Origin: Octopus vulgaris
Lineage: Eukaryota
DNA length: 64,000 nt
Assembly (NCBI GenBank): GCA_951406725.2
Contig: OX597821.1
Span: forward strand, 91,450,001-91,514,000
Direction: 5' to 3'
The notes beneath the pieces were generated by a model. That model worked only from the letters and a program-made list of their open reading frames with translations, was not told where the DNA came from and searched no databases. The number at the start of each line of letters is the position of its first letter. Position 1 is the first letter of the stretch. Shown here piece by piece: positions 4,959 through 42,522 of the stretch. The position numbers and the translations under genes were made by a program.

Positions 4959-5448
4959 TCTAACAATATTAAAAGAACCAGAAAAGGTGGAGAAATAAAA
5001 TAAAAAAAAACTAAGACAAAAGACAAACACAAAAACAACAACGTAAGGCTTTTGGTAGACTGGCTGCTGGAAAGTAACAAGCACTCTTGATAAATATTGT
5101 GGTTTTCACAAATGGAAAGCAAACCGTTTCTGCCTGGCTTGCACGGTGCATGAATTACCTCACACCTCGCACAGCTCTCTGCACCTCACTACATCGCTCT
5201 GCCCCGCAGTGCTTGAAGGATTTATTGCAATCTGTCTTGAGAAAAATGTCCACTCTGGATGATCAATTTCTCAAATATGTTTGCTACAATACATTTATCA
5301 TTTTCACGCTCCGCCGGTCAACACCAGACACAGTGCTTTTATTGAAAAACGAGCCAAATATAAGTAAATAAATAACTAAATAACTAAATAACTAAATAAA
5401 AAAAATAAAAACTTTCCAGGAACGCTGCAAAGGAATAAATGGCAAATA

Positions 5449-25078: not shown

Positions 25079-25105
<27 letters not shown>

Positions 25106-25111
<6 letters not shown>

Positions 25112-26487
25112 GTCCCGGGTTGATTCGGGGTTAACCACAGTAAGTAAGGTACTCAATACATAGCAGAGTAAAATTAATTTATTATATAGAAGGAGCTTCT
25201 ACAGGACTAGTACTGTTTCATTCAAGAGAAATCTTCAGGAAGCTATTTAACAAGAATTGTATTAGCATTTATACATTTAGGCAGGTTTAGTAATGTTCTT
25301 CAGGGAAGTGTCGAGGTCGATTCTTGTCAGCATTTTTCTTGGTGATGGTTATAAGGGCACTAGGGTGTGCTAGGATATGTAGGTCCCGGGTTGATTCGGG
25401 GTTAACCACAGTAAGTAAGGTACTCAATACATAGCAGAGTAAAATTAATTTATTATATAGAAGGAGCTTCTACAGGACTAGTACTGTTTCATTGAAGAGA
25501 AATCTTCAGGAAGCTATTTAACAAGAATTGTATTAGCATTTATACATTTAGGCAGGTTTAGTAATGTTCTTCAGGGAAGTGTCGAGGTCGATTCTTGTCA
25601 GCATTTTTCTTGGTGATGGTTATAAGGGCACTAGGGTGTGCTAGGATATGTAGGTCCCGGGTTGATTCGGGGTTAACCACAGTAAGTAAGGTACTCAATA
25701 CATAGCAGAGTAAAATTAATTTATTATATAGAAGGAGCTTCTACAGGACTAGTACTGTTTCATTCAAGAGAAATCTTCAGGAAGCTATTTAACAAGAATT
25801 GTATTAGCATTTATACATTTAGGCAGGTTTAGTAATGTTCTTCAGGGAAGTGTCGAGGTCGATTCTTGTCAGCATTTTTCTTGGTGATGGTTATAAGGGC
25901 ACTAGGGTGTGCTAGGATATGTAGGTCCCGGGTTGATTCGGGGTTAACCACAGTAAGTAAGGTACTCAATACATAGCAGAGTAAAATTAATTTATTATAT
26001 AGAAGGAGCTTCTACAGGACTAGTACTGTTTCATTCAAGAGAAATCTTCAGGAAGCTATTTAACAAGAATTGTATTAGCATTTATACATTTAGGCAGGTT
26101 TAGTAATGTTCTTCAGGGAAGTGTCGAGGTCGATTCTTGTCAGCATTTTTCTTGGTGATGGTTATAAGGGCACTAGGGTGTGCTAGGATATGTAGGTCCC
26201 GGGTTGATTCGGGGTTAACCACAGTAAGTAAGGTACTCAATACATAGCAGAGTAAAATTAATTTATTATATAGAAGGAGCTTCTACAGGACTAGTACTGT
26301 TTCATTCAAGAGAAATCTTCAGGAAGCTATTTAACAAGAATTGTATTAGCATTTATACATTTAGGCAGGTTTAGTAATGTTCTTCAGGGAAGTGTCGAGG
26401 TCGATTCTTGTCAGCATTTTTCTTGGTGATGGTTATAAGGGCACTAGGGTGTGCTAGGATATGTAGGTCCCGGGTTGATTCGGGGTT
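25106..26487 (-). repeat. 271-bp tandem repeat, left arm (5.1 units, hammerhead on the minus strand)
   Basis: aggtcccggg recurs at 25110, 25381, 25652, 25923, 26194 and 26465 (exact 271 spacing). Confidence 0.97.
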
Positions 26488-29400
26488 CTTACTTACTGTG
26501 GTTAACCCCGAATCAACCCAGGACCTACATATCCTAGCACACCCTAGTGCCCTTATAACCATCACCAAGAAAAATGCTGACAAGAATCGACCTCACACTT
26601 CCCTGAAGAACATTACTAAACCTGCCTAAATGTATAAATGCTAATACAATTCTTGTTAAATAACTTCTGAAGATTTCTCTTGAATGAAACAGTACTAGTC
26701 CTGTAGAAACTCCTTCTATATAATAAATTAATTTTACTCTGCTATGTATTGAGTACCTTACTGTGGTTAACCCCGAATCAACCCGGGACCTACATATCCT
26801 AGCACACCCTAGTGCCCTTATAACCATCACCAAGAAAAATGCTGACAAGAATCGACCTCATTACTCCCTGAAGAACATTACTAAACCTGCCTAAATGTAT
26901 AAATGCTAATACAATTCTTGTTAAATAGCTTCCTGAAGATTTCTCTTGAATGAAACAGTACTAGTCTGTAAACTCCTTCTATATAATAAATTAATTTTAC
27001 TCTGCTATGTATTGAGTACCTTACTTACTGTGGTTAACCCCAGATCAAAGGGACTAGCATATCCTAGCACACCCTAGTGCCCTATAACCATCACCAAAAA
27101 ATGCTGACAAGAATCCACCTCGACACTTCCCTGAAGAACATTACTAAACCTGCCTAAATGTATAAATGCTAATACAATTCTTGTTAAATAACTTCCTGAA
27201 GATTTCTCTTGAATGAAACAGTACTAGTCCTGTAAACTCCTTCTATATAATAAATTAATTTTACTCTGCAATGTATTGAGTACCTTACTTACTGTGGTTA
27301 ACCCGAATCAACCCGGGACCTACATATCCTAGCACACCCTAGTGCCCTTATAACCATCACCAAGAAAAATGCTGACAAGAATCACCTCACACTTCCCTGA
27401 AGAACATTACTAAACCTGCCTAAATGTATAAATGCTAATACAATTCTTGTTAAATAGCTTCCTGAAGATTTCTCTTGAATGAAACAGTACTAGTCCTGTA
27501 GAAGCTCCTTCTATATAATAAATTAATTTTACTCTGCTATGTATTGAGTACCTTACTTACTGTGGTTAACCCCGAATCAACCCGGGACCTACATATCCTA
27601 GCACACCCTAGTGCCCTTATAACCATCACCAAGAAAAATGCTGACAAGAATCCACCTCGACACTTCCCTGAAGAACATTACTAAACCTGCCTAAATGTAT
27701 AAATGCTAATACAATTCTTGTTAAATAGCTTCCTGAAGATTTCTCTTGAATGAAACAGTACTAGTCTGTAGAAGCTCCTTCTATATAATAAATTAACTTT
27801 ACTCTGCTATGTATTGAGTACCTTACTTACTGTGGTTAACCCCGAATCAACCCGGGACCTACATATCCTAGCACACCCTAGTGCCCTTATAACCATCACC
27901 AAGAAAAATGCTGACAAGAATCGACCTCGACACTTCCCTGAAGAACATTACTAAACCTGCCTAAATGTATAAATGCTAATACAATTCTTGTTAAATAGCT
28001 TCCTGAAGATTTCTCTTGAATGAAACAGTACTAGTCCTGTAGAAGCTCCTTCTATATAATAAATTAATTTTACTCTGCTATGTATTGAGTACCTTACTTA
28101 CTGTGGTTAACCCCGAATCAACCCGGGACCTACATATCCTAGCACACCCTAGTGCCCTTATAACCATCACCAAGAAAAATGCTGACAAGAATCGACCTCG
28201 ACACTTCCCTGAAGAACATTACTAAACCTGCCTAAATGTATAAATGCTAATACAATTCTTGTTAAATAGCTTCCTGAAGATTTCTCTTGAATGAAACAGT
28301 ACTAGTCCTGTAGAAGCTCCTTCTATATAATAAATTAATTTTACTCTGCTATGTATTGAGTACCTTACTTACTGTGGTTAACCCCGAATCAACCCGGGAC
28401 CTACATATCCTAGCACACCTAGTGCCCTTATAACCATCACCAAGAAAAATGCTGACAAGAATCGACCTCGACACTTCCCTGAAGAACATTACTAAACCTG
28501 CCTAAATGTATAAATGCTAATACAATTCTTGTTAAATAGCTTCCTGAAGATTTCTCTTGAATGAAACAGTACTAGTCCTGTAGAAGCTCCTTCTATATAA
28601 TAAATTAATTTTACTCTGCTATGTATTGAGTACCTTACTTACTGTGGTTAACCCCGAATCAACCCGGGACCTACATATCCTAGCACACCCTAGTGCCCTT
28701 ATAACCATCACCAAGAAAAATGCTGACAAGAATCGACCTCGACACTTCCCTGAAGAACATTACTAAACCTGCCTAAATGTATAAATGCTAATACAATTCT
28801 TGTTAAATAACTTCCTGAAGATTTCTCTTGAATGAAACAGTACTAGTCCTGTAGAAGCTCCTTACTTACTGTGGTTAACCCCGAATCAACCCGGGACCTA
28901 CATATCCTAGCACACCCTTGTGCCCTTATAACCATCACCAAGAAAAATGCTGACAAGAATCGACCTCGACACTTCCCTGAAGAACATTACTAAACCTGCC
29001 TAAATGTATAAATGCTAATACAATTCTTGTTAAATAGCTTCCTGAAGATTTCTCTTGAATGAAACAGTACTAGTCCTGTAGAAGCTCCTTCTATATAATA
29101 AATTAATTTTACTCTGCTATGTATTGAGTACCTTACTTACTGTGGTTAACCCCGAATCAACCCGGGACCTACATATCCTAGCACACCCTAGTGCCCTTAT
29201 AACCATCACCAAGAAAAATGCTGACAAGAATCGACCTCGACACTTCCCTGAAGAACATTACTAAACCTGCCTAAATGTATAAATGCTAATACAATTCTTG
29301 TTAAATAGCTTCCTGAAGATTTCTCTTGAATGAAACAGTACTAGTCCTGTAGAAGCTCCTTCTATATAATAAATTAATTTTACTCTGCAATGTATTGAGT

Positions 29401-32400
29401 ACCTTACTTACTGTGGTTAACCCCGAATCAACCCGGGACCTACATATCCTAGCACACCCTAGTGCCCTTATAACCATCACCAAGAAAAATGCTGACAAGA
29501 ATCGACCTCGACACTTCCCTGAAGAACATTACTAAACCTGCCTAAATGTATAAATGCTAATACAATTCTTGTTAAATAGCTTCCTGAAGATTTCTCTTGA
29601 ATGAAACAGTACTAGTCCTGTAGAAGCTCCTTCTATATAATAAATTAATTTTACTCTGCTATGTATTGAGTACCTTACTTACTGTGGTTAACCCCGAATC
29701 AACCCGGGACCTACATATCCTAGCACACCCTAGTGCCCTTATAACCATCACCAAGAAAAATGCTGACAAGAATCCACCTCGACACTTCCCTGAAGAACAT
29801 TACTAAACCTGCCTAAATGTATAAATGCTAATACAATTCTTGTTAAATAGCTTCCTGAAGATTTCTCTTGAATGAAACAGTACTAGTCCTGTAGAAGCTC
29901 CTTCTATATAATAAATTAACTTTACTCTGCTATGTATTGAGTACCTTACTTACTGTGGTTAACCCCGAATCAACCCGGGACCTACATATCCTAGCACACC
30001 CTAGTGCCCTTATAACCATCACCAAGAAAAATGCTGACAAGAATCGACCTCGACACTTCCCTGAAGAACATTACTAAACCTGCCTAAATGTATAAATGCT
30101 AATACAATTCTTGTTAAATAGCTTCCTGAAGATTTCTCTTGAATGAAACAGTACTAGTCCTGTAGAAGCTCCTTCTATATAATAAATTAATTTTACTCTG
30201 CTATGTATTGAGTACCTTACTTACTGTGGTTAACCCCGAATCAACCCGGGACCTACATATCCTAGCACACCCTAGTGCCCTTATAACCATCACCAAGAAA
30301 AATGCTGACAAGAATCCACCTCGACACTTCCCTGAAGAACATTACTAAACCTGCCTAAATGTATAAATGCTAATACAATTCTTGTTAAATAGCTTCCTGA
30401 AGATTTCTCTTGAATGAAACAGTACTAGTCCTGTAGAAGCTCCTTCTATATAATAAATTAACTTTACTCTGCTATGTATTGAGTACCTTACTTACTGTGG
30501 TTAACCCCGAATCAACCCGGGACCTACATATCCTAGCACACCCTAGTGCCCTTATAACCATCACCAAGAAAAATGCTGACAAGAATCGACCTCGACACTT
30601 CCCTGAAGAACATTACTAAACCTGCCTAAATGTATAAATGCTAATACAATTCTTGTTAAATAGCTTCCTGAAGATTTCTCTTGAATGAAACAGTACTAGT
30701 CCTGTAGAAGCTCCTTCTATATAATAAATTAATTTTACTCTGCTATGTATTGAGTACCTTACTTACTGTGGTTAACCCCGAATCAACCCGGGACCTACAT
30801 ATCCTAGCACACCCTAGTGCCCTTATAACCATCACCAAGAAAAATGCTGACAAGAATCGACCTCGACACTTCCCTGAAGAACATTACTAAACCTGCCTAA
30901 ATGTATAAATGCTAATACAATTCTTGTTAAATAGCTTCCTGAAGATTTCTCTTGAATGAAACAGTACTAGTCCTGTAGAAGCTCCTTCTATATAATAAAT
31001 TAATTTTACTCTGCTATGTATTGAGTACCTTACTTACTGTGGTTAACCCCGAATCAACCCGGGACCTACATATCCTAGCACACCCTAGTGCCCTTATAAC
31101 CATCACCAAGAAAAATGCTGACAAGAATCGACCTCGACACTTCCCTGAAGAACATTACTAAACCTGCCTAAATGTATAAATGCTAATACAATTCTTGTTA
31201 AATAGCTTCCTGAAGATTTCTCTTGAATGAAACAGTACTAGTCCTGTAGAAGCTCCTTCTATATAATAAATTAATTTTACTCTGCTATGTATTGAGTACC
31301 TTACTTACTGTGGTTAACCCCGAATCAACCCGGGACCTACATATCCTAGCACACCCTAGTGCCCTTATAACCATCACCAAGAAAATGCTGACAAGAATCG
31401 ACCTCGACACTTCCCTGAAGAACATTACTAAACCTGCCTAAATGTATAAATGCTAATACAATTCTTGTTAAATAGCTTCCTGAAGATTTCTCTTGAATGA
31501 AACAGTACTAGTCCTGTAGAAGCTCCTTACTTACTGTGGTTAACCCCGAATCAACCCGGGACCTACATATCCTAGCACACCCTTGTGCCCTTATAACCAT
31601 CACCAAGAAAAATGCTGACAAGAATCGACCTCGACACTTCCCTGAAGAACATTACTAAACCTGCCTAAATGTATAAATGCTAATACAATTCTTGTTAAAT
31701 AGCTTCCTGAAGATTTCTCTTGAATGAAACAGTACTAGTCCTGTAGAAGCTCCTTCTATATAATAAATTAATTTTACTCTGCTATGTATTGAGTACCTTA
31801 CTTACTGTGGTTAACCCCGAATCAACCCGGGACCTACATATCCTAGCACACCCTAGTGCCCTTATAACCATCACCAAGAAAAATGCTGACAAGAATCGAC
31901 CTCGACACTTCCCTGAAGAACATTACTAAACCTGCCTAAATGTATAAATGCTAATACAATTCTTGTTAAATAGCTTCCTGAAGATTTCTCTTGAATGAAA
32001 CAGTACTAGTCCTGTAGAAGCTCCTTCTATATAATAAATTAATTTTACTCTGCAATGTATTGAGTACCTTACTTACTGTGGTTAACCCCGAATCAACCCG
32101 GGACCTACATATCCTAGCACACCCTAGTGCCCTTATAACCATCACCAAGAAAAATGCTGACAAGAATCGACCTCGACACTTCCCTGAAGAACATTACTAA
32201 ACCTGCCTAAATGTATAAATGCTAATACAATTCTTGTTAAATAGCTTCCTGAAGATTTCTCTTGAATGAAACAGTACTAGTCCTGTAGAAGCTCCTTCTA
32301 TATAATAAATTAATTTTACTCTGCTATGTATTGAGTACCTTACTTACTGTGGTTAACCCCGAATCAACCCGGGACCTACATATCCTAGCACACCCTAGTG

Positions 32401-33388
32401 CCCTTATAACCATCACCAAGAAAAATGCTGACAAGAATCCACCTCGACACTTCCCTGAAGAACATTACTAAACCTGCCTAAATGTATAAATGCTAATACA
32501 ATTCTTGTTAAATAGCTTCCTGAAGATTTCTCTTGAATGAAACAGTACTAGTCCTGTAGAAGCTCCTTCTATATAATAAATTAACTTTACTCTGCTATGT
32601 ATTGAGTACCTTACTTACTGTGGTTAACCCCGAATCAACCCGGGACCTACATATCCTAGCACACCCTAGTGCCCTTATAACCATCACCAAGAAAAATGCT
32701 GACAAGAATCGACCTCGACACTTCCCTGAAGAACATTACTAAACCTGCCTAAATGTATAAATGCTAATACAATTCTTGTTAAATAGCTTCCTGAAGATTT
32801 CTCTTGAATGAAACAGTACTAGTCCTGTAGAAGCTCCTTCTATATAATAAATTAATTTTACTCTGCTATGTATTGAGTACCTTACTTACTGTGGTTAACC
32901 CCGAATCAACCCGGGACCTACATATCCTAGCACACCCTAGTGCCCTTATAACCATCACCAAGAAAAATGCTGACAAGAATCGACCTCGACACTTCCCTGA
33001 AGAACATTACTAAACCTGCCTAAATGTATAAATGCTAATACAATTCTTGTTAAATAGCTTCCTGAAGATTTCTCTTCAATGAAACAGTACTAGTCCTGTA
33101 GAAGCTCCTTCTATATAATAAATTAATTTTACTCTGCTATGTATTGAGTACCTTACTTACTGTGGTTAACCCCGAATCAACCCGGGACCTACATATCCTA
33201 GCACACCCTAGTGCCCTTATAACCATCACCAAGAAAAATGCTGACAAGAATCGACCTCGACACTTCCCTGAAGAACATTACTAAACCTGCCTAAATGTAT
33301 AAATGCTAATACAATTCTTGTTAAATAGCTTCCTGAAGATTTCTCTTGAATGAAACAGTACTAGTCCTGTAGAAGCTCCTTCTATATA

Positions 33389-33393
<5 letters not shown>
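26488..33393 (+). repeat. 271-bp tandem repeat, right arm (~26 units, hammerhead on the plus strand); retrozyme-like array
   Basis: Reverse complement of the left-arm unit, near-identical copies; two units carry a 45-bp deletion. Confidence 0.97.
27997..28047 (+). ncRNA. Type I hammerhead ribozyme (representative copy; one per 271-bp unit)
   Basis: Stem I AGCTTC/GAAGCT; core CTGAAGA 28003-28009; stem II t-TTC-tctt-GAA-t; GAA; stem III ACAG-tactagtc-CTGT; predicted cleavage after GUA (A28041). Confidence 0.85.
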
Positions 33394-33440
<47 letters not shown>

Positions 33441-33451
<11 letters not shown>

Positions 33452-33640
33452 TATAGAAGGAGCTACAGGACTAGAACTGTTTCATTCAAGAGAAATCTTC
33501 AGGAAGAGCTTCCTGAAGATTTCTCTTGAATGAAACAGTCCTAGTCCTGTAGAAGCTCCTTCTATATAATAAATTAATTTTACTCTGCTATGTATTGAGT
33601 ACCTTATTTACTGTGGTTAACCCCGAATCAACCCGGGACC

Positions 33641-33645
<5 letters not shown>
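33441..33645. mobile_element. Terminal module: inverted partial unit plus direct partial unit of the 271-bp repeat, between (TA)n tracts
   Basis: 33441-33506 is a minus-orientation hammerhead region and 33507-33645 is plus orientation ending gggacctacat(at)n; it carries private SNPs. Confidence 0.85.
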
Positions 33646-33678
<33 letters not shown>

Positions 33679-33683
33679 CATAT

Positions 33684-33970
33684 GGCGCAATGGCCCAGTG
33701 GTTAGGGCAGCAGACTTGCAGTTGTAGGATCGTGGTTTCGATTCCCAGACTGGGCTTTGTGAGTGTTTATTGAGCGAAAATACCTAAAAGTTCCACAAGG
33801 CTCCAGTAGGGTGTAGTGGTGATTCACCACAACTTTCTCTCACTCTTTCTTCTGTTGGCCTGCTCACTTAGCCAGCGGGGTGGCGTCATTTGAAGGCTAA
33901 AACAATGCGAAGCACATTGTGACAAGCGATGTGTAGCAACATCTCATGGCCTGGTTGGTCATGTGATCAT
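33684..33970 (+). mobile_element. SINE family C
   Basis: ggcgcaatggcccagtggttagggcagc head. Confidence 0.8.
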
Positions 33971-33981
33971 GTGCGTGATAT

Positions 33982-35077
<1,096 letters not shown>

Positions 35078-35937
35078 TTGCACATATACATAAATAAATA
35101 GATCATGCTCATGCAGTGAAATAAAGTTTTCATCAAGTGTGCATACATATACATATGTGTGATATACATACACTGCAATACACATAGGCAGACAGACACA
35201 CACACTCACACATACACAAAGACAAACTTACATATGCACACACACACATACATAGACCCATACACAGACGCATACATAAATCATGTAATAATTGGGTGGC
35301 TTATTTGGTATTGTAACCAGAGATTTGGCAAATACTTTCACAAAACTGTTAATCCCAAAATGCCACTGTCCTTCCTATTCATCACATCTGAAAACTGGTC
35401 TGGTCAACTTCCTATAACAGCCTGCCTTGTGCAGTGACGAATCTTATTCCTACCAGCACCTTCTCTCCTTCCTCTTCTTCTTCTTCTTCTCCTCCTATTC
35501 CTTCTCCATCCCCTCTCTCTCTTTCACACTCTTGAAACAGTATCATTGCTTGCTATTACACCACGTTAATTCCATTATATTAATATAGTCCTCTTCTTCC
35601 CTTCCACACCCAGTTGCAGTCCATGAATCTGGCATCGGCATCAAGGGTAGACATGTCGATAAGGCAGTCAGTCCAATGTTTAACTGCTTTCAAAGTTAAC
35701 CACAAATCCCAATCGAATATCTGCAGAAAGATTAATCATTCAAAATGATCCTTTCGGAAGATACTTGTGGACAACTAGAAGTACAAAGTACAGTTTTGTG
35801 ATTTGGTGCAGACTAATGGTACATGGCATGACTAAAATAAATATATTCAATGATTATAGAAACCAATAAACAAGTGAGAAAGACGTTAAGGACTCTCCTT
35901 GTTCCCCCCATCACCCAGTCTCTTACTCTCTCTCTCC

Positions 35938-35999
35938 ATGTACATATATATACATATATATATATACACATATATATACATATATATACATATATATAC

Positions 36000-36037
<38 letters not shown>

Positions 36038-36274
36038 ATATATACATATATATACATATACATATATATACTTATAAATATATACACATATATATATACA
36101 TATATATATACACATATATATACATATATATACACACATATATATACATATATATACATATATATATATATACATATATATATAAATACATATACATATA
36201 AATATATATATATATATATATATACATATATATACATATATATACATACATATATATATATATACACACACATA

Positions 36275-36305
<31 letters not shown>

Positions 36306-36427
36306 GCATACATATATATATATGATGTATGTATGTGCATATATATATATCTATATATATACGCACACACACACACATTATATATATATATACATGTATA
36401 TATATATACATATGTATACATGCATAT
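35938..36427. repeat. (TA)/(TACA) degenerate microsatellite
   Basis: Direct reading. Confidence 0.9.
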
Positions 36428-37132
36428 GCCCGGTGGAAGTTAGAAACACTAAGTAATCTTTAAACCCAGCATAAACATAAAACAATTAATTACCAAGTGA
36501 TTGTCTTATTTGACAAGAGGCTGACAGTTATTCTGTAGTGAATGATTTACAACTTACAACAACACAGCCTGGTGGGGACACAAGATGGCAAACAGATACG
36601 AGGTGGAACATTTGTGCAGTGGTGTTGAAGAAGTCATCACTGATATTTTGGCGTAGGTGTGTCTGTAGATGAGATGACTTCTTCGTGGTAGCCATAGCTA
36701 TTTCTGTGTGAGGAATCTAAGCATATTGACATACTAGAGGTTGATAAATTGGGAAGCACTGTTTAAATAAGTTGAGGATTATGAATTAATATCTATCAAG
36801 TAAGAGATGTTGTACTGATAACCTCAAATTCTTCCTTGAAATTTCTTGTATATTGTATAATTTGAGGCAAAATTTTTATGTCCACATTGTCCTCTCCAAC
36901 ACACAAACATAATCACACACAATCACACACACATACTCACAATCACACACACACAGTCACACGCACACATATACACACAAGCTTATATCACAAATACTTG
37001 CATTGAAGTAAATATTTGTAAAAGTGGAGCCCCAGAACAAGGTCAGCTCTCATGAATATAAGGGTTTAAAATAAGGTTTGTTTCAATTTCCAGTTTTGAA
37101 ATTGTGTGGTAGACCTACCAATACTAACTTGT

Positions 37133-38025
37133 GGAGGTACATAGCCAAGTGGTTACAGCAGCAGACTCACGGTCGAGGGACCGTGGGTTCGAATCTCAGA
37201 TCGGGCGATGTGTGTGTTTATGAGCGAAACATCTAAGCTCCACGCAGCTCCGGCAGAAGGTAATGGCGAACTTCTGTTGACTCTTTTGCCACAACTTTCT
37301 CTCACTCTTTCCTCCTGCATCTTGCAGCTCATCTGCGATGGACCGGCGTCCCATCAAGGTGGGGAACCTATATGCCAAAGAAACCGGGAAACCAGCCCTT
37401 ATGTGCCAGGCATGGCTCGAGAAGGAACAAACAATACTAACTTGCTTTGCAATCACTTGGCCATTGGGCTCAGTTTTACAGTGTGGCAACTTGGGCATGC
37501 CTTGTGTACTTTAGTTCAAGTCTGACCAATGTCATGTGCATGAATTTGGGAGACAAAATATTTTTGCATTTGTGCTTGCTACCACATTAATCCTGCTAGC
37601 ATCTGGTCCTTGCAAACCTTTAACAGAATCCACTTTATTTTCAGAATTCAGTCTGTATTTATAGTCTCACAATAATATAATAGTTTATGGCGGCAAGCTA
37701 CCAGAATCATTAACATGCCAAATGCTTGTTCCTACTCGAGCCATGCCTGGCTCATAAGGGCTGGTTCCCCGGTTTCCTTGGCATATAGGTTCCCCACCTG
37801 GATGGGACGCCGATCCGTCGCAGGTGAGCTGCAAGATGTAGGAGGAAAGAGTGAGAGAAAGTTGTGGTGAAAGAGTCAGCAGAAGTTCGCCATTACCTTC
37901 TGCCGGAGCCGCGTGGAGCTTAGGTGTTTCGCTCATAAACACATATATCACCCAGTCTGAGATTCGAACCCACGATCCCTCGACCGTGAATCCACTGCTC
38001 TAACCACTAGGCCATGTGCCTCCAC
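37133..38025. mobile_element. Two SINE family C copies in opposite orientation (37133-37432 +, 37725-38025 -)
   Basis: Mutually reverse-complementary, with a tRNA-like head (gggttcgaatctc B box). Confidence 0.85.
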
Positions 38026-39011
38026 CTTTAACATGCCAGACAAAATGCATAGTGGCATTTCATCCATCACTATGTTTTAAGTTCAAATACTTTGCCTTCC
38101 GTTCTTTCAGGGCCAATAAAACAAGTACCAGTTGAGTATGGAGTGTCAACTTGCCCTCTCTCCTGAAATTGCTGGCTTTGTGCCAAAATTTGAAATCAAT
38201 AATATGATATTTTAATTTCTTCAGTCTACGAGTTCTGGATTATTTATTCTCGCCAACATAGTTTCTCTCACTGGAACGAGTTGTCACAACTACCCGTTTT
38301 CTCATCCTTTCATCTCTACCAGTTTCACTTACTGTCTTAATGCTCTCTCTGAAATGTTTTGTAAAACAAATCCATTCACAGAACATCTTGTGACATGTAG
38401 CTCACAATCCATCTCTCGGGCTCTCGCCACTTCCACTCCTCGAACCACTCAACACTCCAATTTACTATATATATAGTTTGGCCTTTCACAATGGACCTAC
38501 TAACTCTGGGTTTAATAGAGAGAAGCGTTCTATGTTTCCCATTCAAATCTACATTCTTTTTGGCCTTTGATACATCCACTTACACACACACACACACACA
38601 CACACATCCGAAAATCTATAATCCTCACACATACGAAAATCAACCAAAATAACCTAGTTACATTTTAACACGTCCTTCCATAATATCCACTTGGATACAC
38701 ACTATGCATACACATACCACACATGCTACACTTTTACACATGTTTGCATTTGTTCTTCACAGCATAAAACAACGCTTTAATACATACGAGTATGCACGTA
38801 AGCATGTGCACTAATCCATACAATACGTGATTAACCATTAAGCACATCATTGCTTTTTTAAAAATCAAATACACGAACATATTAATCACAAATTTTCATT
38901 ACAGTATAACAGACGCATTTTTGTTTCCATGCACATGCACACACAGATCTATAGACAATAAGCATGCACATAAATATGCAGTCACATTCACTCAACACAT
39001 GAAACATCGAT

Positions 39012-39800
39012 AAGGCGACGAGCTGACAGAAACGTAAGCACGCCGGGTGAAATGCTTGCCGGTATTTCGTCTGCCGTTACGTTCTGAGTTCAAATTCCGC
39101 CGAGGTCGACTTTGCCTTTCATCCTTTCGGGGTCGATTAAATAAATACCAGTTACGCACTGGGGTCGATATAATCGACTTAATCCGTTTGTCTGTCCTTG
39201 TTTGTCCTCTCTGTGTTTAGCCCCTTGTGAGTAATAAAGAAATAGGTATTTCCTCTGCCGCTACGTTCTGAGTTCAAATTCCGCCGAGGTCGACTTTGCC
39301 TTTCATCCTTTCGGGGGTCGATTAAATAAATACCAGTTACGCACTGGGGGCGATATAATCGACTTAATCCGTTTGTCTGTCCTTGTTTGTCCTCTATTTG
39401 TGTTTAGCCCCTTGTGAGTAGTGAAGAAATAAGTATTTCCTTTGCCGCTACGTTCTGAGTTCAAATTCCGCCGAGGGCGACTTTGCCTTTCATCCTTTCG
39501 GGGGTCGATTAAATAAATACCAGTTACGCACTGGGGGCGATATAATCGACTTAATCCGTTTGTCTGTCCTTGTTTGTCCTCTCTGTGTTTAGCCCCTTGT
39601 GAGTAATAAAGAAATAGGTATTTCCTCTGCCGCTACGTTCTGAGTTCAAATTCCGCCGAGGGCGACTTTGCCTTTTATCCTTTCGGGGTCGATTAAATAA
39701 GTGCCAGTTATCCACTAGGGTCGATATAATCGACTTAATCTGTTTATCTGTCCTTGTTCGTCCCCTCTGGGTGCAGCTCTTTGTGGGTAGTAAAGAAAAA
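39012..39800 (+). repeat. Tandem array of 4 SINE family B bodies (~185-bp period)
   Basis: tacgttctgagttcaaattccgccgagg...gccccttgtgagta repeated 4 times; only the first copy has the A-box head. Confidence 0.9.
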
Positions 39801-40297
39801 AGGAACATCGATAACTACGCATGCACACTGAATGATAACTCTTTCACATCCCTCGCACACAAACACACACATACACTTACAAGCAATTGCATAGACACGT
39901 CCACCCATTAGCCAGCTTTCCAGACATCGAACTTCTATCACTCAACATATGCACATGCACAAACACACACTGATATAGAAACACACCCACACACATACAA
40001 ACACGCACGCACGCATGCACACACACACAAACACACCATATGCAAAGTACGATGCATACATAGAAACTACTTCACCACATCCCTCATGCATATATACACA
40101 CATGCACCAACGTGCACATGGAAACACATCTGTCCTAATATCTACTCTTATGTCTTAAAACGCTCTATGTAGCCCACCAACCAGATTCTAGTCAGTTGAT
40201 GGCCTGTACGTAGACCATCTCCACATGTCTGTTTTCACAAAGATTGCACTTTTATTTTGCTATTTTCACTTCCATTTAACAATTTCTCTTTATCGTT

Positions 40298-40412
40298 ACG
40301 GGTTCAGTCCCACTGCGTGTCACCTTGGGCAAGTGTCTTCTGCTATAGCCTCGGGCCAACCAAAGCCTTGTGAGTGGATTTGGCAAACGGAAACTGAAAT
40401 AAGACCGTCGTA

Positions 40413-40469
<57 letters not shown>

Positions 40470-40689
40470 TATGTCTGTGTATATGTTTGTGTGCCTGTGT
40501 TTGTCCCCCCAACATCACTTGTCAACTGATGGTGGTATGTTTACGTCCCCGTAACTTAGCGGTTCGGCAAAAGAGACCGATAGAATAAGTACTAGGCTTC
40601 CAAAGAATAAGTCCTGGGGTCGATTTGCTCGATTAAATGCGGTGCTCCAGCATGGCCGCAGTCAAATGACTGAAACAAGTAAAAGAGTA
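40298..40689 (+). mobile_element. SINE family A (5'-truncated)
   Basis: Homology to 881-1282. Confidence 0.85.
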
Positions 40690-41019
40690 ATTTTTCCTCC
40701 TTTTCCACTGTCCAAAGAAGGATAACATCTGAAATGTTACTGCGCTTAATTCTTACCATTTCCCTAAGCAACAAACTTATATTATTGATGGTAAACTTAT
40801 TTCACCTATACATGATTGTGTATGTATGTATGTACGTATGTATGCATGTATGTATGTATGTATGTATGTACCAAGTTGTCAAAAGATTTTTCGTATTTCA
40901 AGCTTTAATTAAAAATTCAAAGAAACTAGATCCGAAAAGCCTTTAATCATCAAAATATAACTCATCATATTTTATTCTCTGATGCCAATAATGCAGAGGG
41001 GACAAACAATGCATAGTGG

Positions 41020-41867
41020 TGTTTCGTCTGTCATTACGTTCTGAGTTCAAATTCCGTTGAGGTCAACTTTGCCTTTCATCCTTTCGGGGGTCGATTAAAT
41101 AAGTGCCAGTTACGTGCTGGGGTCGATGTAATCGACTTAATCCCTTTGTCTGTCCTTGTTTGTCCCCTCTGTGTTTAGCCCCTTGTGGGTAATAAAGAAA
41201 TAGGTATTTCGTCTGCGAGCTGGCAGAATCGTTAGCACGCCGGACGGAATGCTTAGCGGTATTTCGTCTGTCTTCACATTCTGAGTTCAAATTCCGCCGA
41301 GGTCGACTTTGCCTTTCATCCTTTCGGGGGTCGATTAAATAAGTGCCAGTTACGTGCTGGGGTCGATGTAATCGACTTAATCCCTTTGTCTGTCCTTGTT
41401 TGTCCCCTCTGTGTTTAGCCCCTTGTGGGTAATAAAGAAATAGGTATTTCGTCTGCGAGCTGGCAGAATCGTTAGCACGCCGGACGGAATGCTTAGCGGT
41501 ATTTCGTCTGTCTTCACATTCTGAGTTCAAATTCCGCCGAGGTCGACTTTGCCTTTCATCCTTTCGGGGTCGATTAAATAAGTACCAGTTACGCACTGGG
41601 GTCGATATAATCGACTTAATCCGTTTGTCTGTCCTTGTTTGTCCTCTCTGTGTTTAGCCCCTTGTGGGTAGTACAGAAATAGGTATTTCGTCTGCCATTA
41701 CGTTCTGAGTTCAAATTCCGTTGAGGTCAACTTTGCCTTTCATCCTTTCGGGGGTCGATTAAATAAGTGCCAGTTACGTGCTGGGGTCGATGTAATCGAC
41801 TTAATCCCTTTGTCTGTCCTTGTTTGTCCATTCTATGCTTAGCCCCTTGTGGGCAATAAAGAAAGAA
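41020..41867 (+). repeat. Tandem array of 4 SINE family B bodies (periods 240, 240, ~184)
   Basis: ctgagttcaaattccg at 41041, 41281, 41521 and 41705; two units include the A-box head. Confidence 0.9.
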
Positions 41868-42083
41868 ATATAATGGTGTAAAGTCTGAACTGTAACTTTT
41901 GTCGTATAAATTCACACATAACAATAAAATTAAATGGAATAATATTCATGTAGACTTGAGACTAAGTGCAACTTTAAATATAGTTTTAGCCATTCTTAGA
42001 AATATTATGTATTTCTTAAAATAAATCTGGAAAGTATCTTCAAGCTTGTATTAACTGCATTTACTGCTCTATAACTTAATATA

Positions 42084-42522
42084 TCTCTCTCTATATAAAC
42101 GGCAGTTTGTCTGTCTGTGTGTGTGTGTGTCTGTCAGGTTGTACCCTCACCCTGACCACGGCTTTCAACCGATTCTGATACACTTGACACACACATAGCC
42201 CAATGTCATAATTCAAAACTAACGCAGCGAAAATTTTGAAAAGTTCCCTCAGTTCTGAAAAAAATCGATAAATTCGACATGGGGTCGAGAATCTAAGCCT
42301 TTTATATGCAACACATTTTCTGTCTAGGGGACGCAACTCGACCTTTTTATCGCCCAAAGGGACAGCTAGGAACATCGTATATACAGAAGTATTCGAGTGA
42401 AGAGAAGACATTGCAACCTACACATGCGCCTTCATTCCCTAGAGGGAAAGGACTAGATTGGGATTAGTCGTTGCCTACTAGGGGCTCTTACATACCCGGG
42501 CAACGCCGGGCTATGCTGCTAG
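42084..42522 (+). mobile_element. Non-autonomous Helitron
   Basis: 5' TC after A, subterminal hairpin cccgggcaacgccggg (42495-42510), 3' CTAG followed by T; no TSD. Confidence 0.75.

Follow-up and report, generated by a model that had tools for sequence, protein, structure and literature searches.

Insertions of Penelope-like elements (PLEs) that are inverted and tailed and lie in (TA)n are already known (PMC8557442). The inverted 5'-truncated pLTR insertions described for EN-bearing PLEs have two head-to-head arms, one of which is extended by 30-40 nt, lie in (TA)n and carry a hammerhead in the terminal repeat (PMC8557442, PMC3846280). The Hydra clade of these elements is characterized by a C-terminal GIY-YIG nuclease, the motifs RW(K/R), DKT, CxCX5C, CxxC and CxH, a lack of GxKF/Y and a (TA)n target, and its members are generally below 3 kb (PMC8557442). 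Animal non-LTR retrozymes form a second group, which consists of ~300-bp tandem non-coding units of low GC content (<45%) with a type I hammerhead motif each (PMC7229834). They are related to the terminal repeats of PLEs (PMC7229834, 10.64898/2026.07.22.740005) and have been proposed to be PLE derivatives (10.64898/2026.07.22.740005). How the inverted tailed PLE insertions originate, and how retrozymes arise from PLEs, are open questions (PMC8557442, PMC11167929, 10.64898/2026.07.22.740005). An array of Octopus vulgaris shares the head-to-head arms with one extended end and the (TA)n target with the PLE insertions, and has a predicted hammerhead motif in the terminal repeat as well. However, its extension comprises 71 nt and its arms are made up of a non-coding deletion unit in tandem. 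Moreover, a near-strict pairing of long and short ends was counted here for this family, as against the insertions of PMC8557442 and PMC3846280. The class of layout is known, and the array is an informative example of it.

The window analyzed here is a stretch of 64,000 nt of the O. vulgaris genome (GCA_951406725.2, contig OX597821.1, positions 91,450,001 to 91,514,000 of the forward strand) with 0 N. The locus consists of two insertions, namely the array and a neighboring hairpin (Table 1). The array comprises 31 copies of a 271-base piece with a ribozyme motif in two arms that point outward. The unit-by-unit alignment bears out what a sequence-only reading of the window had claimed, i.e., that the strand flips at 26487/26488 and that the strands with the hammerhead motif are directed outward. 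The mini-hairpin at 33442-33645 has a B arm on the minus strand (33442-33506, 94% identity to the unit) and an A arm on the plus strand (33504-33645, 98% identity), and is more diverged from the unit than the array.

Table 1. Positions of the features of the locus within the 64,000-nt window.
Feature	Positions	Strand	Remark
Left (TA)n target tract	25083..25107	none	
Left arm, 5 units + 27-nt partial unit	25106..26487	-	1382 bp; unit-by-unit alignment
Inversion junction	26487..26488		blunt, 16-nt offset
Right arm, 43 nt + 25 units + 200 nt	26488..33394	+	
Indel-rich zone, 15 small deletions in 1377 bp	26488..27864	+	likely consensus errors
One clean 271-bp unit	27865..28135	+	
TATAAAT at unit position 104, putative promoter	27968..27974	+	inferred
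Predicted type I hammerhead motif, one per unit	27997..28047	+	motif letters
Ten-unit block, two copies (units 5-14 and 15-24)	27595..32923	+	
(TA)n tract between array and second insertion	33395..33441		
Separate mini-hairpin insertion of the same family	33442..33645	both	204 bp
Right (TA)n tract	33646..33683		

Judged from its sequence, the unit derives by deletion from a ~5.2-kb Hydra-clade PLE. It corresponds to the element positions 3-87 and 5008-5191 with 100% identity, so that the first 87 nt of the element are joined to its last ~184 nt via a 2-nt microhomology. The start codon of the ORF is located at unit position 44, and the unit, which has a GC content of about 0.37-0.39, is non-coding with 15 ORF codons left. 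The genome search found the exact 271-bp joint 31 times, and all 31 copies lie in this window; a master copy of the unit elsewhere in the genome was considered, and none was found. With one unit as query the genome search gave many partial matches, with 40 of 67 candidates scored. Twenty fetched stretches have the ORF start within the unit, and one of the fetched loci (L035:211-8970) carries tandem full-length copies with a period of 5193 bp. The ORF is broken into frames of 506 and 225 aa in several fetched copies, whereas it is open throughout, for 713 aa, in L049. This single ORF encodes an RT followed by a C-terminal GIY-YIG, as in the Hydra clade, and contains RWR (38), DKT (116), YRDD (347), CNCHDKTTC (567, CxCX5C), YIG (603), CDLC (667, CxxC) and CMH (695, CxH), but no GxKF/Y. 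Its neighbors in the protein atlas include GIY-YIG and RVT_1 clusters, and a Pfam scan of the 713 aa gave nothing above the cut-off. As the element also inserts into (TA)n like the Hydra clade does, the parent is, by its motifs, a Hydra-clade PLE; the Naiad clade was rejected, because the nuclease is C-terminal. Compared to the Hydra clade as described in PMC8557442 the element has RWR instead of RWK, and with 5.2 kb and a long microsatellite-rich 3' region it exceeds the usual size. The Penelope-like nature that the sequence-only reading had suggested thus holds, since the unit comes from such an element and inverted arms are normal for the family, which is young.

The predicted hammerhead motif of the unit has a 6-bp stem I, CUGAAGA, GAAA, a 4-bp stem III and a GUA site. 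Its stem II is weak, with 3 bp, a U-U at the base and the usual G10.1-C11.1 pair absent. Shuffled sequences fold as well as the motif does (z -0.26), and the Rfam hammerhead models gave no match on one unit at E up to 10, nor did Rfam at gathering score find a match in the window. Self-cleavage by a type I hammerhead is therefore putative.

Insertions of this family end at two fixed sites beside (TA)n, which we named A (unit position 271) and B (unit position 200) and which are 71 nt apart, and as a rule an insertion pairs one long end (A) with one short end (B). The exact pattern of end plus (TA)n is present genome-wide 2351 times for A and 1355 times for B, with 0 matches for the reversed controls. 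Furthermore, among the loose contig ends listed from other samples, (TA)n is reached at A in four of four runs and at B in three of four. The pairing was counted over the listed places on C1 1-106 Mb with 100 A and 63 B ends. An outward A partner is present for 36 of the 63 B ends within 10 kb and for 37 within 15 kb, the extra pair being two separate hairpins (L079, L080), whereas random placement gives a mean of 0.43 pairs at 15 kb. Outward pairs of the same type were found once for A|A and never for B|B on C1 1-106 Mb, and the lone A|A pair (L068) turned out to consist of an A|B insertion and a second piece behind it, a compound layout like that of the window. Of the A ends left without a partner, the first 20 were inspected: an inverted B arm that ends inexactly accompanies 11 of them, six are without an inverted piece within 5 kb and three are ambiguous. 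In the array the left arm extends from site A at its outer end to unit position 245 at its inner end, and the right arm from unit position 229 to site B. The A|B rule is followed by the array, with A at 25106 and B at 33394, as well as by the hairpin, whose B lies at 33442 and whose A lies at 33645, each being an inverted 5'-truncated copy with a tail of 71 nt at one end, as is typical for PLE insertions. Therefore, the identical outer ends that had been assigned to one giant palindrome are an accident of adjacency. It is correct that 25106 and 33645 both correspond to unit position 271 and have (TA)n directly beyond them, but they are not the ends of one insertion: the main right arm already stops at 33394, at unit position 200, and 33645 belongs to the hairpin.

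The inversion at 26487/26488 is very probably biologically real. Unit positions 245 and 229 are joined bluntly and without microhomology, and the 22-mer that spans the joint occurs a single time in the genome assembly. This single occurrence, together with the error-rich zone adjoining the junction and the likewise garbled segment at the junction of a second array on C5, would also be in accordance with an artefact of the assembly caused by a long read that was chimeric or folded back, a reading that we nevertheless regard as very unlikely. The unique left flank is present once in the window and has no mirror copy, whereas a foldback read would have mirrored it. Moreover, the two sides of the junction are offset by 16 nt, the outer ends of the arms are at A and B as the family rule requires, whereas a foldback read would not stop at site B, and the same layout is found in an array on C2 with nearly clean arms. 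The noisy zone itself points in the same direction. There are 15 small deletions in 26488-27864, compared to two in the other 5530 bp of the right arm and none in the left arm (p 3e-9), and the left arm, if mirrored at the junction, would extend to 27869, so that the zone is coextensive with this mirror image. This match suggests long-read errors in a true palindrome, which are likely the cause of the indels. Nanopore reads of a true inverted duplication lose quality from the junction onward and regain it after approximately the length of the first arm (PMC7229812), and an error zone of this length starting at the junction is exactly what is seen here. By analogy, the errors here may be of the nanopore type. 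Hence, of the indel-rich stretch that the earlier reading had noted right of the junction, the observation stands (with an extension over 26488-27864), but its use as a sign against the inversion does not, since the zone matches the mirror span of the left arm; the foldback reads it had considered are unlikely in view of the unmirrored left flank and the end rule. Consensus errors can in this way flag true palindromes in long-read assemblies. Among the contigs of six public runs (X1, X2, X4, X5, X6, X16) no listed piece spans 26487/26488, and none spans the 31-copy joint either. Therefore, the array itself did not show up in the sampled runs, and their lack of the junction does not bear on its reality. 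No empty allele of the insertion was found, its target being (TA)n.

Both arms derive from one source. Of 28 hairpins examined, 25 could be scored, and 23 of these have a subfamily letter common to both arms (expected 49%, p 6e-6). The closest A arm of a B arm is its own partner in nine of 13 longer insertions, with the partner being third closest in the other four, and in all three arrays (271, 277, and 333 bp) the two arms have one deletion joint in common that is private to the locus. The two sibling arrays are palindromic with A|B ends and a joint of their own, and consist of 277-bp units on C2 (L032, G000:C2, ~64,628,314-64,632,212) and of 333-bp units on C5 (L033, G000:C5, ~37,481,421-37,489,267). 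The family has at least three arrays, the search for those with larger units having scored 40 of 1004 candidates and given the C5 array alone. The TATA motif, the predicted hammerhead motif and the end sites A and B are retained in all three units. The variants of the C2 and C5 arrays are arm-specific, and some recur within the C5 array. Right of the C5 junction (L033:7598-7960) there are short pieces of the opposite arm, which look like a blended consensus. The arms of the C2 array stop at unit positions 212/238 (L032:4509/4510) and those of the window at 229/245 (26487/26488), both between B and A. These inner stops in two of three arrays possibly reflect a stall at a protein-bound region.

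The left arm of the window is invariant except for one base, G154C at 25494, which is found once in the right arm as well, at 33077, and the mirrored rare SNP of the sequence-only reading is thereby confirmed. In both arms it falls in the unit next to the terminal one, with the two positions displaced by the A-B distance of 71 nt. G154C is the only mirrored variant, as left unit 2 lacks a counterpart of the G59C+T204C seen in right unit 23. The mirrored G154C supports a common source of the arms, and a multimeric template, fold-back or conversion between the arms would fit it better than a monomer circle. That the array variants are family polymorphisms was considered and rejected, since none of 60 further fetched stretches has A16T, G59C, G134A, G154C, or T204C; each of G181A, T215A, and C261A is present in a single one of them. 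Units 5-14 and 15-24 of the right arm differ by one mismatch and three gap columns in 2664 bp. This ten-unit duplication is either a later expansion of the right arm or an assembly duplication, and the copy number is therefore not due to rolling synthesis alone. A deletion of 44 nt (unit 184-227, with CCTT microhomology), which removes site B, is present at 28677-28903 and 31343-31568. As claimed before, the right arm starts at the point where these deletion variants (units 9 and 19) resume, unit position 229, which is possibly one pause site.

Inner limits of both arms were resolved for 56 insertions (L090 was dropped as a duplicate of L035, and L078, L093, L101, and L109 as unclear). They are symmetric within 10 nt in 33 of these, B reaches more than 10 nt further 5' in 13 and A further in 10, and three insertions have arms without shared sequence. 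Both arms stop at -146 to -130 relative to A in 26 of the 56, and one identical perfect palindrome center at -140 is found at 246 loci genome-wide. Hairpins of ~205 bp with both arms stopping at -140 are distributed over the whole genome (e.g., L052, L061, L089). The TATAAAT motif sits 29 nt upstream of this stop point of most short insertions, which would be in accordance with a transcript start at -140, where both cDNAs would run off. Alternatively, the limit could correspond to a splice acceptor, as an AG is preceded there by a pyrimidine tract.

In the twin priming of L1, two ends of the target prime on one RNA, which leads to an inversion. Different from L1, both priming sites are fixed here and the arms usually overlap in sequence. 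We hold with moderate confidence that the array is one insertion by twin priming on one, probably circular, RNA of the Hydra-clade deletion derivative. The GIY-YIG nuclease of the element would cut (TA)n on both strands, and the two 3' DNA ends would prime at A and B, 71 nt apart, on the same RNA. On an ordinary promoter-initiated RNA both cDNAs would run off the 5' end at about -140 and give the ~205-bp hairpins, while on a 271-nt circle they would roll round and give tandem arms, before the cDNA ends are joined bluntly at 26487/26488. The ten-unit duplication would have been gained later by the right arm or added by the assembler, and the palindrome would cause the long-read errors right of the junction. 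That the arms of the array run past -140 is expected of a circular template. Circles have also been proposed as templates of more-than-unit copies, and hammerheads on opposite strands 100-700 bp apart have been noted as well (PMC4209133). A splice-made circle was rejected, as no GT donor is present at the 271-bp joint and a microhomology of 1-2 nt is visible by eye at each of the three joints. Another PLE, Poseidon of Anolis, likewise uses two adjacent internal start sites in vitro, which set the tail, and both target strands are extended (PMC11167929). However, the sites of Poseidon are located within the ORF, and the in vitro data of PMC11167929 revealed no strand difference or preference in the choice of the start site, whereas the sites here are upstream of the ORF and paired as A|B. 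Therefore, the strict pairing is not explained by that work.

Two other mechanisms have to be weighed against twin priming on a circle, which itself has the mirrored G154C, the weak hammerhead motif unmatched in Rfam, the ten-unit duplication, the strand-neutral starts of Poseidon, the failure to find a bridging contig and the six of 20 unpaired A ends without an inverted piece against it. Fold-back was proposed for Penelope inversions (PMC3846280); a strand from A would self-prime and be copied back to B, and later deletions in the center would produce the asymmetry. It accounts for the common source of the arms as well as for G154C being mirrored in register with the outer ends, and the symmetric junctions (33 of 56) and the 246 perfect centers are in accordance with it. 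Palindromes can undergo later deletion, but such a deletion would be required in 13 of the 56 insertions and in all three arrays, with more than 5 kb lost from the A arm here. The arm asymmetry among the 56 insertions, together with B being the longer arm in all three arrays, thus speaks against simple fold-back, whereas twin priming explains it without an extra step. Moreover, fold-back predicts the short-ended arm to be nested in the long-ended one, but three insertions have non-overlapping arms, the other variants of the three arrays are unmirrored, and a center with zero spacer would fit two annealed ends better than a loop. Altogether we consider fold-back unlikely. Somewhat more doubtful still is twin priming on a short linear template of one or two units followed by satellite-type expansion through unequal exchange, for which a circle would be unnecessary. 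The ten-unit duplication and the recurring variant combinations in the right arm fit such an expansion, as do the recurring variants of the C5 array, and local amplification is discussed in 10.64898/2026.07.22.740005. However, the six arms of the three arrays would each have to expand independently, none of the ordinary hairpins fetched contains an array, and the units of the left arm vary at a single base.

Assuming twin priming on a circle, the array may also be seen as a retrozyme at birth, a view that we put forward tentatively and to which we give slightly less than an even chance. The active element would repeatedly shed circles (271, 277, and 333 nt) that keep the promoter, the ribozyme and both priming sites, and an asymmetric enzyme pair on one RNA would copy every circle into the two target strands, starting at A for one strand and at B for the other. 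If this is true, one rule covers the Penelope "tail," the inverted terminal repeat, the ~205-bp hairpins and the palindromic arrays. Like the animal retrozymes, the array consists of tandem non-coding units of similar size and GC content and is related to the terminal repeat of a PLE, and a type I hammerhead motif is predicted in each unit; different from those of PMC7229834, its unit is found at a single locus, is 100% identical to the parent and has no dispersed family. The term "inverted" is absent from the main text of PMC7229834. Neither paired A|B ends nor locus-private or palindromic arrays are the subject of any paper that we found in the open-access literature, although the supplements of PMC8557442 may list the family, nor is twin priming of Penelope, judged by title and the start of the abstract. 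As the locus supplies a parent with an intact ORF, an identical minimal template of 271 nt and two mapped start sites, twin priming can be tested against fold-back.

Outside of the two insertions, the sequence past the right (TA)n tract (33684-33760) resembles by eye a tRNA-derived SINE head, which neither ARAGORN nor Rfam called; no tRNA genes were called, and Rfam over 33640-42200 gave microsatellite-driven miRNA matches only. Further downstream there are two related tandem arrays with units of 187 bp (39061-39798) and 240/185 bp (41008-41864), which are SINE-like by eye and unrelated to the PLE.
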